From assembly GCA_963810275.1 (NCBI GenBank), contig CAWENF010000014.1, positions 41,841 to 105,840 on the forward strand: a stretch of DNA of 64,000 bases, given 5' to 3'. The position numbers and the translations under genes were made by a program. The notes under the pieces are model-generated. The model did no database searches. It was not told where the DNA came from and was given only the letters and a program-made list of their open reading frames with translations. This document shows, piece by piece, positions 2,359 to 8,176 of the stretch. The stretch is from an uncultured archaeon (GTDB lineage Archaea > Thermoproteota > Bathyarchaeia > Bathyarchaeales > Bathycorpusculaceae). The first letter of the stretch is position 1. Each line of letters begins with the position of its first letter.

Positions 2359-2997
2359 ATGCCGTTCAATTTATTCCACAGAAAAAAGCCAGAACAAGAA
2401 GAACCAGAAGCAGCCCCAACCACCGAACAGGCACCTGAGCCCACGCCAGAAGCCCCAGTTAAAGCTGCATTTGAACCCATAGAGTCTGAAATGGTTGAGG
2501 AATCCAAAACAAATCTACAATCAGAACCAGAGCCTAAACCTGAACCCGAATCGCCAGCAGCGGAACCCGAACCTCAAGAACACCCCGGAGAGCAACCAGC
2601 CGAGGCGCCAATAGCATTAGAACCGCAGCCAGAACCTGAACAACCCGTTAAATCGCCGTCAGAGGAACCCCAAGCACCGTTAGAACCAGAACCTACATCT
2701 AAAATTTATCTAAAAGCCATGCCGCTCAAAGAATTAACGGATGTAGAAAACGTAAAAGAAGCAGTAACGAACGGCAACATAATAATTTTGCGAATCACAC
2801 CTCTTGCTGGAAAGAGCATAGAGGACGTCAAAAAAGCAGTTAACGACTTGTTCGAGTTTTCTGAATCCGTGGGTGGCGACATCGCCCGCCTTGGTGAGGA
2901 GCGTGTTGTTATCTGCCCTAAAACAGTGCGAATTTGGCGTGAAAAAACTCCAGTGCCAGTCCCGAAAAGAGATCCGCTTCCGCCTACAACAGCCTAA
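2359..2997 (+). CDS. sepF: Cell division protein SepF with long Pro/Glu-rich N-terminal linker
   Basis: C-terminal GNIIILRITPLA...GGDIARLGEERVVICP core; basic/aromatic N-terminus MPFNLFHRKK. Confidence 0.8.
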   Translation: MPFNLFHRKKPEQEEPEAAPTTEQAPEPTPEAPVKAAFEPIESEMVEESKTNLQSEPEPKPEPESPAAEPEPQEHPGEQPAEAPIALEPQPEPEQPVKSPSEEPQAPLEPEPTSKIYLKAMPLKELTDVENVKEAVTNGNIIILRITPLAGKSIEDVKKAVNDLFEFSESVGGDIARLGEERVVICPKTVRIWREKTPVPVPKRDPLPPTTA

Positions 2998-4909
2998 AGG
3001 TTTCCAGCGCAGACGGAACCACTGTATGTATTCCGGCTTTGTTGTCTAGGAAGTTGCCGAAGTTTAGGGTCTTTTGTCTTTCGCCGTGCACTACAAAGAT
3101 GCGTTCAGGTTTAGGAGACAGATGGGTGAGATAGTTGACAAGTTGGCGGCGGTCGCTGTGTCCACTGAATCCTTCCACGGTTTGTACGCCCATTTTGACG
3201 CTGAAAGCAGCCATTTTGCCCTCGTTATCCATCATGGTGACTTCGCCAACGCCTTTCTGCACGCGTCTCCCCATGGTGCCCTCGATTTGGTAGCTGACAA
3301 AGATGATTTGGTTTAGCTCGTTTGAAGCCCAGTTCTTAAAGTACTCAATTACGGGACCGCCTTCAAGCATACCGCTCGTGGCGAGTACAATACAAGGTTC
3401 ACCTTCCATGATGCTACTGCGTTGGCTTGGGTGATCAACAATAGTGAAGTAATCAGATTTGAAGGGGTTAACTTCCTCGTGGAGGATGCTGTGCCGCACT
3501 TCGCGGCCAAGGTATTCGGGGTAGGCGGTGTGGATGGCTGTGGCTTCGCTGATCATGCCTTCAATGAACACTGGCGCCTCCTTCATTAGACCCCGCTTCA
3601 TGTAGCCGTCGATGACCAACATGATTTCCTGAGCTCTGCCCACGGCGGGCACGGGTATGAGAACTTTGCCTTTACGTTCCAAGGTCTGGTTGATTGCTCG
3701 GGTTAGAGATTCTTCAGCTTCTACTCTGGTAGGCACAATGTCATCGGATCCACTGTAGGTAGATTCGGTGATGACAGTTTCGATTCGTGGAAACTCTGTG
3801 GCAGCCGCTTCAAGGAGCATAGTTCTTCCGAACTTGTAGTCGCCAGTGTAGACAATGTTATGGAGGCCTTCACCTATGTGGAGGTGAACCATTGCGCCGC
3901 CCAAAATGTGACCACTGTTGTGTAGTGTTAAGCGGATATCGGGAGCGATGTCGGTGACGACACCGAACCTGAGAGGGATCGTGTGAAGCACAGCTTCGCG
4001 AACGTCTTTTTGGTCGTAGAGGGGTGTAACGCCCTGCTTGTTGGCTACGTCGAGGTAGTCAAGCTGAAGCATAGTCATCAGATTTGACGTTGGCGCAGAG
4101 CAGTATATGGGTCCGTCGTAACCATACTTGTATAGGAATGGCACAAGCCCACAGTGATCGAGGTGCGCGTGACTTATGACAACAGCGTCAAGCGAGTCTA
4201 TTTCAAACTCGGGACTGTCGAAGCGTGGGAATGACTCAAACGGTCGGGTAGAGCCAGGATGGATACCACAGTCCAGTAGTACAGATGATTCGCGGGTTTT
4301 AATTAGGAATGCGCTGCGTCCAACTTCCTGTGCACCGCCCAAAACTGTCATGCGAACGTCGCCGACTTCGTAGCTTTTTGGGCGGAAAATACGTTCACCC
4401 ACGGTTCGCAAAATGCGTTCGCGTTCTTTGCTTTCTGAGTGCAAGTAATGGCGCATATGAGTTACAATTTTAGATTTAATCGGCGGGCTACGTAGAACAT
4501 GTGGACGCCACTTGGTTTTCTTAATTATTTCCTGAAGCACCGCGCCGTTTCTACCAATGACTAAGCCAGGTTTTTTGGTTTCGATTATGATTTCGCCCAG
4601 TGAAGGGTCGAAGTTTATGTCGGTGATTTCAGCTTCGGGCGAGATGAGTTCACGGGCGATTTTCTCTGCTTCCACCTCGGGGATACGCACGGATGGGTCG
4701 GGACGTATAACGATTCTTTTACGTATGACGCCGACTATCTCGGCCACGATGCTACTTTTGTCAACCAGAATTTCTGGACGTTTAGTGTAAACTGCAAGCA
4801 TAGGACCCTCATATTCGATGCGGGTGACCTCTGCTTCGCGGGGAACTTTTTCGAGAATATACTGGCTAATTTCTATTTTATCCTTGTCTTTGTCTTGTGT
4901 TCGAGCCAC
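2984..4909 (-). CDS. fttA: beta-CASP ribonuclease aCPSF1 / transcription termination factor FttA
   Basis: N-terminal KH domains, SHAHLDH metallo-beta-lactamase motif, GFSGHSD; follows psmB as is typical. Confidence 0.95.
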   Translation of the reverse strand: MARTQDKDKDKIEISQYILEKVPREAEVTRIEYEGPMLAVYTKRPEILVDKSSIVAEIVGVIRKRIVIRPDPSVRIPEVEAEKIARELISPEAEITDINFDPSLGEIIIETKKPGLVIGRNGAVLQEIIKKTKWRPHVLRSPPIKSKIVTHMRHYLHSESKERERILRTVGERIFRPKSYEVGDVRMTVLGGAQEVGRSAFLIKTRESSVLLDCGIHPGSTRPFESFPRFDSPEFEIDSLDAVVISHAHLDHCGLVPFLYKYGYDGPIYCSAPTSNLMTMLQLDYLDVANKQGVTPLYDQKDVREAVLHTIPLRFGVVTDIAPDIRLTLHNSGHILGGAMVHLHIGEGLHNIVYTGDYKFGRTMLLEAAATEFPRIETVITESTYSGSDDIVPTRVEAEESLTRAINQTLERKGKVLIPVPAVGRAQEIMLVIDGYMKRGLMKEAPVFIEGMISEATAIHTAYPEYLGREVRHSILHEEVNPFKSDYFTIVDHPSQRSSIMEGEPCIVLATSGMLEGGPVIEYFKNWASNELNQIIFVSYQIEGTMGRRVQKGVGEVTMMDNEGKMAAFSVKMGVQTVEGFSGHSDRRQLVNYLTHLSPKPERIFVVHGERQKTLNFGNFLDNKAGIHTVVPSALETFRLL

Positions 4910-4913
4910 AGTA

Positions 4914-5558
4914 TTAACTTCCTGCCTGTAGCAGCTTAGATTTCTCCTCGTCGGTTAACTCTTTGTAACCGAGCTTGGTGATTACTATAATGTTGTAGTT
5001 GTTGCCGCTTGCTACGTCGCGTTTCATGGCTGCATTGACAGCCTTAGCGATGGTAGGCAACGTTTCTTCTATAGTGGAGTCTTCTTTGAATTTGTCTTCC
5101 AAAACACCATAGGCAACTGGGCTGCCGCTGCCGGTGGAAACCATTTTTTCTTCGGTTAAGCTTCCGTAAGGGTCCAAGTTGAACACGTGAGAACCAGATT
5201 CGTCTACGCCGCCGACAAGCACTTGAGTTTGAAGGGGAATATATCTGCCTTGGAAAAGAAGGTTTGCAACCAGTCTTGCCGCTGAAGCAATAGGTATGGG
5301 GCGGTTCAGGTTGGTTTTGTAGAGTTGAGCATTGGCGGTTAAGATGTCGACGACGCGTTGGGCATCTGCGACTGTTCCGGCGATGGTCATGCCGATGTGG
5401 TCGTCAATTTTGTAGACTTTTTTGCCTGCTTTGTGAGCAACGTAGTAACCCATGGTTACACGGGTGTCAGAGGCTAAGATTACGCCGTCTTTGCATACGA
5501 CGCCGATTGTTGTGGTTCCTTTGAGGATTAATTGGCTAGCTGGGTTATTTTGTGACAT
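4914..5558 (-). CDS. psmB: Proteasome subunit beta
   Basis: Propeptide then KG|TTTIGVVCKDGVILASD, GSGS. Confidence 0.95.
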   Translation of the reverse strand: MSQNNPASQLILKGTTTIGVVCKDGVILASDTRVTMGYYVAHKAGKKVYKIDDHIGMTIAGTVADAQRVVDILTANAQLYKTNLNRPIPIASAARLVANLLFQGRYIPLQTQVLVGGVDESGSHVFNLDPYGSLTEEKMVSTGSGSPVAYGVLEDKFKEDSTIEETLPTIAKAVNAAMKRDVASGNNYNIIVITKLGYKELTDEEKSKLLQAGS

Positions 5559-5730
5559 AGTTTTTTGCTCCTAAAACTCCGTTTTGCGGAATGCCATCCA
5601 CTAGGAAGATGCATGAAGTAATCAATCTATGAGCCTAATTAATATTTCGCCAAACATTTAGAGCAACATATTCCCATATAGAAGTGGCAAAGAGAGGAAC
5701 ATTTTTAGGTAACTGGCGATGTTAGTTGCA

Positions 5731-5800
5731 ACTCGGCGCGTGAGTGGTGCTTCCCACCCGTTGCGCCAAATAAAATAAAACCCGGAGTAGGGAGGCAAAT
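5731..5800 (+). promoter_or_regulatory. Candidate translational riboswitch / structured leader of queT-queC
   Basis: Hairpin 5735-5767, A-rich tail 5768-5780; loop segment 5748-5760 is complementary to 5783-5797, which includes the GGGAGG SD; TTG start at 5805. Confidence 0.5.
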
Positions 5801-5804
5801 ACAG

Positions 5805-6335
5805 TTGAAAATACGAACCAAAGATTTAGCTCTAATAACAATATATGCCGCTTTATATGCGGCGCTTGTAGTTGGATTAGCACCACTCTCTTATGGACCC
5901 CTTCAAATTAGAATCGCCGACGCTATGGTTGCATCAATACCCATCTTTGGCATGGCTGGTGTTTTGGGACATACACTGGGCGTTTTTGTTGCGAACATGT
6001 TCTCACCTTTAGGATTTATTGACTTACTCAACACCATCCCCTCGTTTGTTATGGCATTTGTGGTTTATTATGTGTATAAACGCACACAAAACGACTACAC
6101 CATCATCGCTACGTGTCTGACGTATTCAGCGGTTTTGGGCGTTACAGTAGGCTGGATGCTGTCCCTTTTTGGGGCTCCACTGCTCTTAACTATGGCGTAC
6201 GTTGGAATTGGCAATGCAATCGCAAGCGTAGCAATCGGTTGGCCCATCTTCAAAGTGCTCAAAAGCATCGGCGTCTACAAATGGTTCTGCAACTGCACGT
6301 ACGCCCAGCCTCCGGCAGGCAATGGTTCAAGTTAA
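5805..6335 (+). CDS. queT: QueT family queuosine/archaeosine precursor transporter
   Basis: AALYAAL....PLSYGPLQIRIA..M signature, multiple TM helices, adjacent to queC. Confidence 0.85.
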   Translation: MKIRTKDLALITIYAALYAALVVGLAPLSYGPLQIRIADAMVASIPIFGMAGVLGHTLGVFVANMFSPLGFIDLLNTIPSFVMAFVVYYVYKRTQNDYTIIATCLTYSAVLGVTVGWMLSLFGAPLLLTMAYVGIGNAIASVAIGWPIFKVLKSIGVYKWFCNCTYAQPPAGNGSS

Positions 6336-6347
6336 TGGTGAAAAAAT

Positions 6348-7001
6348 ATGGAATCAAGAAAATGTATAGTCGTCCTAAGCGGCGGACCAGACTCCGCAGT
6401 TGTAGCGCACTGGGCTAAAGCTCAGGGTTACCAAATCCACCCCATCACCTTCAAGTATGGGCAAATCGCCGAGAAAGAAACCCAAGCTGCAAAACAAATC
6501 GCCGAGAAACTTGGTACCACAACCAAAGTCATTGACCTCTCAGCGCTTAAAGAAATCTTTAGCGGCAACACCAGTCTGGTTAGCCGCGATATTCCGTTAA
6601 CAGCGCAGTTCAGCAGCCCCATCATCGTACCCTTCCGAAACGCCATATTCCTGTCCGCGGCTGTTGCCTACGCCGTCACCGCCGGAGCACAAATAATCTT
6701 TTACGGCGCACACGGCAGCGACGAGCCATTCTACCCTGACTGCCGCAAAGAATTCTACGAAGCGTTCGAAAAAGCCGCCCGGTTGGGCACTGACTGCAAA
6801 ATCAGCATCCAAGCACCGTTTAGCGAACTCAAAAAATCTGAAGTTATAACAGAAGGCGAAAAACTCAATGTACCCTTTGAGTTAACCTGGTCCTGCTATC
6901 TCGACGGCAGCAAACACTGTGGAAGATGCGAGTCCTGTGTCAACCGCAGAAAAGCATTCAAAGAAGCAGCAATCTCTGACCCAACAGCCTACGATGCTTA
7001 A
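6348..7001 (+). CDS. queC: 7-cyano-7-deazaguanine (preQ0) synthase
   Basis: VVLSGGPDS PP-loop, VPFRNAIF, YPDCR, TWSCY...HCGRCESC. Confidence 0.95.
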   Translation: MESRKCIVVLSGGPDSAVVAHWAKAQGYQIHPITFKYGQIAEKETQAAKQIAEKLGTTTKVIDLSALKEIFSGNTSLVSRDIPLTAQFSSPIIVPFRNAIFLSAAVAYAVTAGAQIIFYGAHGSDEPFYPDCRKEFYEAFEKAARLGTDCKISIQAPFSELKKSEVITEGEKLNVPFELTWSCYLDGSKHCGRCESCVNRRKAFKEAAISDPTAYDA

Positions 7002-8068
7002 AATAGGGTTTTCTGTTTATCGCAAAATTGCAGGTTAGAAACCCTAACACCAATAAGCCTCATTTTTCTTCCATTAAGACATGGCAGTAACAACTCTTTT
7101 GAAGTTTTATTTAAATCCTCCACTCTGCCGGTCAGGCGTGGAAGCGTTTTGCTTTTCGTATGCGTTTCGAAGCCTTGGTAACGGATTTTGACAGTGACTG
7201 TTTTGAATAGCAGTTTCTGTTCGGCGGCTTCTTTTTGCACTTCCATGCACAACTCATCGAGCACTTTGAGGATAGCGTCTGGATACGCGGTGTCCGCCTC
7301 AAATGTAATTTCGTGACTGATGCTTTTAAGACCCTCACGCTCTTCCACTTCACTCTGATCCACGCCTTTAGCGTTTAGATGCATCTGCATACCCATCACA
7401 CCAAACATGGAAGCCAAAGCGGTTGGGTCGTAACGGGCTAAGTCGCCGACTGTTTTTATGCCTAACGCTTTGAGTTTAACTTCGGTTTTTCGTCCCACCC
7501 AAAGTAGTTTGCGCACATCAAGTGGTGCAAGAAAAATTTGGGCGTCCTCCTCTCTGACCACAGTTAAGCCATCGGGTTTTTGGTAGTCACTGGCAACTTT
7601 AGCGACCAGTTTGTTGGGTCCAACCCCTATTGAGGCTGTAAGATGCTCTTTTTCCTTGATTTCTTGTTTGATTTGGCGAGCTAACTCCTCAGCATTTTCC
7701 CAGCTATGAACAATATCCGACACGTCGAGAAAAGCTTCATCTAAGCCCCATTGTTCAAATCTGCCAGAGTACCGCCGTGCTATCGCCATTATTTCCCCAG
7801 AAACCTTGATGTAAAGTGGGAAACGAGGCGGCAAGTACACCGCATCTGGGCAAAGCCGCCAAGCCTGCGAAATCGGCATCCCACTTCGGACCCCGGTTGC
7901 TCTTGCCTCATAGTTACTGGTGCTCACAACACCTCTGCCTTTGCCCCTTTTAGGGTCTGCTCCAACCACGACAGGGGTGCCTGCAAGCTGAGGGTCTTCA
8001 CGTTCCTCCACCGCCGTGTAGAAGTGATCCATATCGAGGTGGAGGATGAAGCGTTTTTTCTCCCTCAT
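6998..8068 (-). CDS. dinB: DNA polymerase IV (Y family)
   Basis: HLDMDHFY, STSNYEAR..GVRSGMP, GLDEAFLD, K.ASD..KPDG; start taken at ATG 8068 (ORF open to 8092). Confidence 0.95.
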   Translation of the reverse strand: MREKKRFILHLDMDHFYTAVEEREDPQLAGTPVVVGADPKRGKGRGVVSTSNYEARATGVRSGMPISQAWRLCPDAVYLPPRFPLYIKVSGEIMAIARRYSGRFEQWGLDEAFLDVSDIVHSWENAEELARQIKQEIKEKEHLTASIGVGPNKLVAKVASDYQKPDGLTVVREEDAQIFLAPLDVRKLLWVGRKTEVKLKALGIKTVGDLARYDPTALASMFGVMGMQMHLNAKGVDQSEVEEREGLKSISHEITFEADTAYPDAILKVLDELCMEVQKEAAEQKLLFKTVTVKIRYQGFETHTKSKTLPRLTGRVEDLNKTSKELLLPCLNGRKMRLIGVRVSNLQFCDKQKTLF

Positions 8069-8176
8069 TACCATAAAGAACCTTTTGCACAATTAGAAAT
8101 TTGAACCTATCGAAGAATCAGCCTGTCAAACCTAATATTCAACAGGAACCATAGTGAATCAGAGAGGATAAGTAAG

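Follow-up and report, generated by a model that had tools for sequence, protein, structure and literature searches.

An apparently undescribed pseudoknot leader of archaeal queT-queC messages, likely a translational OFF riboswitch for preQ0

The stretch of DNA analysed here (the window) comprises 64,000 nucleotides from an uncultured archaeon of the Bathycorpusculaceae, and the element in question is the leader of its plus-strand gene pair queT-queC. Nucleotides 5731-5800, immediately before queT, carry a cis-regulatory pseudoknot of a kind that stands before archaeal 7-deazaguanine genes; it is real, widespread and apparently undescribed. The two downstream genes had been named as queT and queC in a preliminary description made from the letters of the window, and profile matches agree: the queT product matches PF06177 (E 6e-25), while that of queC matches PF06508 (E 3e-62) and also TIGR00364, with 193.8 bits at a cut-off of 150.3. 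QueT is predicted to serve a 7-deazaguanine importer as its substrate-binding membrane component. The position of its start is common to queT orthologs, the codon there being TTG, ATG or GTG. The gap between queT and queC is 12 nucleotides and the two are probably carried on one transcript. The features of the locus are as follows (SD, Shine-Dalgarno sequence; BRE, B recognition element).

4914-5558, minus strand: proteasome beta-subunit gene
5559-5804: intergenic spacer between the minus-strand proteasome beta-subunit gene and the plus-strand queT-queC pair
5701-5709, plus strand: TATA-like box ATTTTTAGG with an A-rich, BRE-like stretch before it; predicted promoter
5735-5740, plus strand: 5' strand of the outer stem P1, GGCGC and G5740, the latter wobbling with U5762
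5741-5744, plus strand: loop L1, unpaired UGAG; conserved, a candidate for tertiary or pocket contacts
5744-5747 with 5754-5757, plus strand: inner hairpin GUGG/CCAC around TGCTTC; optional, excludes the pseudoknot
5748-5757, plus strand: anti-SD strand UGCUUCCCAC, the 5' strand of P2b; pairs with 5787-5797
5758-5760, plus strand: 5' strand of P2a, CCG; CCGUU in 202/204 unique leaders
5761-5762, plus strand: L2, UU; at the site of the ligand-pairing C in preQ1-I
5763-5767, plus strand: 3' strand of P1, GCGCC
5768-5782, plus strand: L3, A-rich linker of variable length with a conserved AAAACC at its end
5783-5785, plus strand: 3' strand of P2a, CGG
5787-5797, plus strand: 3' strand of P2b, GUAGGGAGGCA; contains the SD GGGAGG at 5790-5795
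5805-6335, plus strand: queT, TTG start; the regulated gene
6348-7001, plus strand: queC (7-cyano-7-deazaguanine synthase)

The elements of the leader were checked base by base, which placed the A-rich tail AAATAAAATAAAA at 5768-5780, the loop segment TGCTTCCCACCCG at 5748-5760 and the strand CGGAGTAGGGAGGCA at 5783-5797. The preliminary description had located all of these correctly, together with the outer stem (GGCGCG at 5735-5740 with TGCGCC at 5762-5767) and the inner stem GTGG/CCAC. It had also proposed that the loop pairs with the SD region in a helix of 13 bp containing one G-U pair and two bulged A residues, and RNAduplex returns the identical helix at -18.3 kcal/mol. When the loop segment is paired with the real 3' leader the energy is -19.4 kcal/mol, a value attained by 0/1000 shuffles of the 3' leader. 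The helix does bury GGGAGG, as had been claimed, but the distance to the start codon was misjudged; between GGGAGG at 5790-5795 and the TTG at 5805 it is 9 nucleotides and not 7. The minimum free energy (MFE) structure given by RNAfold for the window leader consists of the outer and inner stems.

The position of the promoter allows the 5' end of the message to be predicted. Across 185 non-redundant leaders the A/T content peaks at 82-94% between -34 and -29, counted from where P1 begins, and A-rich positions are found at -40 to -36. This is the spacing to be expected if a BRE/TATA promoter of the archaeal kind directs a start 3-6 nucleotides upstream of P1, and transcription of the window leader is predicted to start at about 5729-5732. 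With the TATA-like box at a constant distance from P1, the motif is predicted to stand at the 5' end of the mRNA. The predicted start is a few nucleotides 5' of the outer stem and not downstream of 5748, which the preliminary description had named as a result that would refute its proposal.

QueT orthologs of the same genus (59-81% identical) have a near-identical leader. A covariance model built from 24 such congeneric leaders, with only P1 annotated (R1), matches 331/401 genomes of the order, nearly always once per genome and with E-values down to 1e-28; among high-quality genomes it matches 202/238, and 103/117 genera are represented. Across the phylum there are matches in 58/301 sampled genomes, including 4 of other orders in the class and 23 of other classes. 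The family covers Bathyarchaeia, Methanomethylicaceae and other Thermoproteota; for Methanomethylicaceae, one motif sequence (L242) is the same as that of the Methanomethylicus mesodigestus V1 record (L129). When one genome per prokaryotic species was scanned with the exact pattern, at least 120 loci matched, those listed lying almost exclusively in archaeal metagenome-assembled genomes (MAGs). Nearly all of the matches listed are labelled Bathyarchaeota or Bathyarchaeia, and the remaining listed matches are from Methanomethylicus, Methanomethylicota, several MAGs that carry the label Nitrososphaerota or Nitrososphaeria, and a small number of bins with odd labels. Contigs bearing the motif and a Bathyarchaeia-like QueT were seen in bins named as an Acidiferrales bacterium, Patescibacteria, Methanocella sp. 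and Promethearchaeati (L164, L165, L170 and L151); they are probably mis-binned, and the QueT of the 'Methanocella' contig is 64% identical to that of the window.

The order-wide consensus is GGCGG GUGAG UGGG(n)CCUCC(C)AC CCGUU CCGCC AUAUAAA CCCC GG nG UAGGGAGGUGA, followed by the start codon about 6-10 nucleotides on, and the motif is 56-72 nucleotides long. The RNA core still averages 82% identity to the window at loci whose QueT is only 31% identical, and over 20 unpaired positions do not vary between archaeal classes. The four nucleotides at 5741-5744 are UGAG in 193/204 unique leaders, UAGG in 6 and UGGN in 5, and no compensating partner was found for them. The length of L3 differs by about 10 nucleotides between relatives while its AAA(A/U/C)CC terminus is kept, and no hairpin is predicted within it in the folds of the window and of representatives.

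Covariation in P1 was tallied on a 99-sequence model-based alignment, in which P1 is paired in 99.8% of the cells. Changes on both sides occur in 3/6 pairs: pair 1 changes from G-C to A-U or C-G, pair 2 from G-C to A-U and pair 5 from G-C to C-G, the last form being that of the window and three relatives. These double changes amount to 12 cells, which was attained by 0/500 shuffles and by none of the slid controls. The sixth pair is a G-U wobble, once A-U, and a leader outside the tally (L248) has U-A at pair 1. The P1 variants stem from loci found by model or protein search, where the sequence of P1 was not fixed. The three CCG/CGG pairs of P2a form in 98, 89 and 99 of the 99 rows, and the shortfall is due to an alignment shift in rows with four C.

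The helix between the loop and the SD covaries as well. CUCCC loops go with GGGAG tails and CUCC loops with GGAG (63/8 against 6/44; odds ratio 58, Fisher p = 4e-18). Duplexes between cognate loops and tails have a mean of -14.7 kcal/mol against -13.4 kcal/mol for non-cognate ones, which none of 5000 permutations reproduced; two tails (L031 and L054) were mis-parsed in this test, an error that works against the result and leaves its outcome unchanged. With one representative for each of the 34 distinct cores the values are -14.2 and -12.3 kcal/mol (0/20000 permutations). This covariation holds even with one strand bound to remain an SD. Multiply compensated versions also occur, namely UCUCAUGC/GCAAAGAGA, UCUCUUGC/GCAGAGAGA and, in Methanomethylicus, CACCUCC/GUGGGGG. 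Furthermore, in two leaders (L251 and L252, from genomes G507 and G493) the loop UUCCGAC perfectly matches GUCGGAA, a 3' strand which is not an SD and ends one base short of the AUG; there the switch would cover the start codon, the mRNA being all but devoid of an SD. Conservation and covariation among orthologous leaders had been named in the preliminary description as a check on its proposal, and both the compensatory changes in P1 and the loop-SD covariation were found. The outer stem and the loop-SD helix give the H-type pseudoknot that it had considered compatible, and the inner stem is mutually exclusive with this pseudoknot.

The inner stem itself fares less well. Its position had been given correctly and it is common, GUGG/CCAC being present in the MFE structure of most representatives, but as a conserved element it does not stand, having no compensatory support and being absent in the short-loop relatives L007, L012-L014 and L023. 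Both GUGG/CCAC and a GAG/CUC hairpin were rejected as obligatory elements, as neither shows compensatory double changes and they are impossible in short-loop relatives. At most, GUGG/CCAC is an optional alternative state, possibly the ON-state structure. P1 also has a competitor in a shifted helix, GCGGGUG/CACCCGU, which L007 and L023 adopt as their MFE structure; either this helix or the inner hairpin could be the state in which the SD is open. A kink-turn reading of GUGAG was discarded on inspection, the 3' strand beside P1 having no GA. An intrinsic terminator was likewise rejected; no U-run follows any of the helices, and control is therefore exerted on translation and not by transcription termination.

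The motif is found only before genes for 7-deazaguanine or preQ0 (202 loci). The first gene downstream is queT in 198/202 loci, and the second is queC in 77 unique loci. In the remaining 4 loci a QueE-like radical-SAM gene comes first; the next gene is queC in two of them and in one encodes a GATase-QueC fusion, of the kind suggested to be an alternative archaeosine synthase of Crenarchaeota. Three of these radical-SAM proteins were scanned, and the five best NCBIfam matches are all QueE models, at scores below the cut-offs. The operon layouts carrying the motif are thus queT, queT-queC, queE-queC and queE-GATase-queC. No conserved regulator gene accompanies it. The fusion-bearing locus, from one MAG (L150:5243-7412), continues from the motif, queE and GATase-QueC into a gene for a DUF2848 protein.

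The rest of the pathway bears upon the choice of ligand. QueF, QueD and QueE were not found in the genome of the window, where the best QueE-like match is NrdG beside NrdD; QueC and QueT are present, as is one TGT-family gene, a 558-aa open frame which is probably ArcTGT. Among genomes of the order at 90% completeness or more, QueD (PTPS) is missing in 59/61. These absences of QueD and QueE mean that the 7-deazaguanine skeleton is probably not made by these archaea; QueT would import a precursor and QueC would finish preQ0, the base put into tRNA by ArcTGT for archaeosine. Archaea of this order therefore seem reliant on imported 7-deazaguanines, possibly 7-carboxy-7-deazaguanine (CDG), for archaeosine. 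Because QueF is absent no preQ1 is made, and this gene content, with no QueF and one TGT-family gene, favours preQ0 over preQ1. Of the candidate ligands preQ0 is the most economical, with CDG as the main alternative.

We therefore read 5731-5800 as the 5' end of the queT-queC mRNA and as a member of an undescribed pseudoknot family that is likely a translational OFF riboswitch for preQ0, a reading to which we give a probability of about 0.7. The preliminary description had proposed the same kind of switch, perhaps sensing preQ0, and every part of its proposal that is open to computational checking was borne out, with the inner stem as a qualification. The features by which riboswitches are generally recognised are found here: a conserved, structured 5' untranslated RNA (its start predicted) with covariation, tied to one pathway in several operon layouts. 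The computations show a P1 of 5-6 bp that closes a loop holding GUGAG, the anti-SD and CCGUU, then an A-rich linker with AAACC at its end, and a tail that returns to pair first as CCG/CGG and then as anti-SD/SD. The resulting H-type pseudoknot buries the ribosome-binding site. It is a putative aptamer, the base bound being a 7-deazaguanine and most likely preQ0; its pocket may involve the invariant GUGAG, the UU and those C residues of AAACC that are unpaired. When the base is plentiful the P1/P2 stack would be stabilised and the SD paired, so that translation of QueT, and thereby of QueC, would be off. When it is scarce the anti-SD strand would be free or held in a local hairpin, leaving the SD open.

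Several points count against this reading or limit it. The energy of the single-sequence fold is ordinary for its composition (z = -0.57; 52/200 shuffles equal or better), so that the window hairpin alone is no better than chance and its reality is supported by comparison between genomes. The covariation statistics ignore phylogeny, and 120 of the loci were fetched by a pattern in which the P1 sequence is fixed. P2a (CCG/CGG) is nearly invariant, so that covariation speaks neither for nor against its pairing, and variable bulges of 1-2 nucleotides at the junction of P2a with the SD helix make the exact register uncertain. That the leader RNA binds a ligand is something we infer, and an RNA-binding protein specific to the pathway could operate the switch instead.

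The preliminary description had judged the loop unlike those of preQ1-I, -II and -III, and the Rfam 15 covariance models bear this out. The window has no match in Rfam 15 at the gathering score, these three classes included, nor any at E <= 10 over 5560-5860 (301 nucleotides), and 14 related loci gave none at E <= 1. All three classes have been described from bacteria only; preQ1-I is an H-type pseudoknot of about 34 nucleotides with an A-rich L3, in which UC (type 1) or AC (types 2 and 3) precedes the 3' strand of P1 and the C pairs with the ligand (PMC11625349). The motif shares with preQ1-I (RF00522, for example Thermoanaerobacter tengcongensis and, for type 3, E. coli) the H-type pseudoknot, a P1 of 5 bp, an A-rich L3 that ends in AAAC, a P2 whose 3' tail takes in the SD, the translational OFF logic and genes of the queT or queC type downstream. 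It differs in having UU for the specificity C (CCGUU before the 3' strand of P1 in 202/204 unique leaders), the second U wobbling with G6 of P1 at the place of the ligand-pairing C; in an L1 and anti-SD of 15-25 nucleotides with the invariant GUGAG, where L1 in preQ1-I has 2-3; in an L2 of 2 nucleotides rather than 4-8; in a P2 of 11-13 bp that buries the whole SD; in a size of about 65 nucleotides as opposed to 34; and in being confined to archaea, with preQ0 as the likely ligand (no QueF). As UU replaces the ligand-pairing C, the pocket must be built differently from that of preQ1-I.

The other two classes are more distant. Like preQ1-II (the COG4708/queT motif, RF01054), the motif lies before queT, pairs the complete SD in a pseudoknot and controls translation only; it differs in that the covariance model fails to match, the P4 hairpin and the HLout topology are lacking, and the linker is unstructured and A-rich. 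preQ1-II is restricted to Bacillota (PMC11625349). The preQ1-III model (RF02680) is also unmatched. The motif thus works like a preQ1 riboswitch and fails the defining tests of classes I, II and III. Whether it constitutes a fourth structural class of 7-deazaguanine riboswitch, the first confined to Archaea and tuned to preQ0 or CDG through a pocket lacking the L2 cytosine, seems to us an even bet.

Little that is comparable has been reported from archaea, for which essentially only TPP (thiamine pyrophosphate) and fluoride riboswitches are on record (PMC5473149). A literature search for riboswitches of Bathyarchaeia, or for preQ0 or archaeosine, found none. The one precedent is sRk28 of Pyrococcus abyssi, a 70-nucleotide RNA with a proposed pseudoknot that adjoins a gene with a QueC domain and was speculated in 2011 to resemble a preQ1 riboswitch (PMC3124441). 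It is likewise archaeal, but its probe CGAGGGTTGCGATGACGT is unlike the motif, no promoter was seen upstream of the RNA and it is unvalidated.

A second type of leader, motif 2, occurs in the same clade. The motif of the window is missing from 20 sampled genomes of the same genus, and the QueT paralog there, about 33% identical, has the leader GGUAG UUU CCG UAUAUAAC CUACC UUAAAAAA CCGG(UGA). Its loci are:

L027:1453-1500, L028-L030 and L272-L293: motif 2, in other genomes of the genus and order

A model of motif 2 (R2) gives 22 good matches in the 401 genomes, mostly in genomes without motif 1, and among the genomes sampled with both models those without motif 1 often carry motif 2; two genomes have both motifs, each before its own QueT paralog, and 19/19 of the motif 2 matches examined precede QueT. 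By eye motif 2 has all the hallmarks of preQ1-I, with UU after P1, AC before P1' (the 3' strand of P1), an L3 rich in A and a P2 extending to the SD; it is not called by Rfam 15, even at E <= 10, and may be an uncurated archaeal subtype of preQ1-I. With the motif of the window it shares the clade, the downstream gene family, the strands of P2 (CCG with AAAAAACCGG) and a similar distance to the TATA box, whereas its length of about 40 nucleotides, the UUU after P1 and the AAC before P1' are different. Bacteria have several classes of preQ1 riboswitch before the same genes, and by analogy with these the near-complementary spread of the two archaeal leaders strengthens the assignment of the ligand.

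Motif 2 also bears on the possibility that the window motif is itself a very divergent preQ1-I, with the same fold and the ligand in the same position between P1 and P2 but with an expanded L1 and a re-wired pocket. The strands of P2 (CCG...AAAAAACCGG) are the same in the two leaders and motif 2 adds the AC before P1', and the window motif agrees with preQ1-I in its H-type pseudoknot, its P1 of 5 bp, its A-rich L3 with AAAC at the end and the inclusion of the SD in P2 (PMC11625349). We nevertheless consider such a subtype doubtful: RF00522 is unmatched even at E <= 10 on the 301 nucleotides, UU stands for the ligand-pairing C in all but two of the unique leaders, L1 has at least 15 nucleotides instead of 2-3 and L2 has 2 instead of 4-8.

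Alternatively, the leader could be a riboswitch for another ligand, such as CDG, preQ1, guanine or the free archaeosine base. With QueD missing from most of the order and QueE from the genome of the window, the QueT-QueC pair suggests import of a precursor of preQ0 (e.g. CDG), and the imported compound is a possible signal. Control by the end product would be the usual logic, however, and no free base comes between preQ0 and ArcTGT; the motif is also found before queE-queC operons, for which the common downstream product is preQ0, and preQ1 is unlikely with QueF absent. A ligand other than preQ0 therefore appears rather improbable.

It is still less probable that a pathway protein, such as ArcTGT or another tRNA-modification factor, controls translation by binding the pseudoknot as an RNA mimic, with no small molecule involved. 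The invariant unpaired nucleotides would fit protein contacts equally well, and the weakest match of R1 falls on a tRNA, but no conserved regulator gene lies beside the motif, and in architecture, associated genes and placement the motif corresponds to the preQ1 riboswitches of bacteria. The tRNA match scores low, with an E-value of about 1e-3, and is due to chance. It (L254, G054:C21:10307-10353) is the 3' half of a tRNA gene, with the T-arm GUGGG/CCCAC, the acceptor strand and CCA, and the hairpin of the motif bears a superficial likeness to a T-arm. A tRNA-like reading of the motif was rejected, being based on this single weak false-positive match to a real tRNA 3' half.

It is very improbable that the leader acts without a ligand, as a thermosensor, as a constitutive damper of translation or as an element of mRNA stability, for although the SD/anti-SD helix is in the ligand-free MFE structure of L007, L023 and L148, the 20 and more unpaired positions mentioned above stay invariant between archaeal classes with QueT down to 31% identity, and an exclusive link with 7-deazaguanine genes would be unexpected for a generic structure.

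If the leader is a preQ0 riboswitch as we propose, it would represent a new RNA fold for a well-studied ligand family and would bring SD-led translation in TACK archaea under riboswitch control. The motif would then govern precursor salvage in Bathyarchaeia and Methanomethylicaceae, which, with the general absence of QueD, would point to cross-feeding of 7-deazaguanines in sediment and soil archaea. It would also offer a compact ligand-responsive part (about 65 nucleotides) for archaeal genetics.

Two neighbouring genes complete the locus. Upstream of the proteasome beta-subunit gene, a 641-aa open reading frame occupies 2984-4909 on the minus strand. On the other side a gene for a DinB/Pol IV-type translesion polymerase with IMS domains (6998-8092, minus strand) is convergent with queC, whose stop it overlaps by 4 nucleotides.

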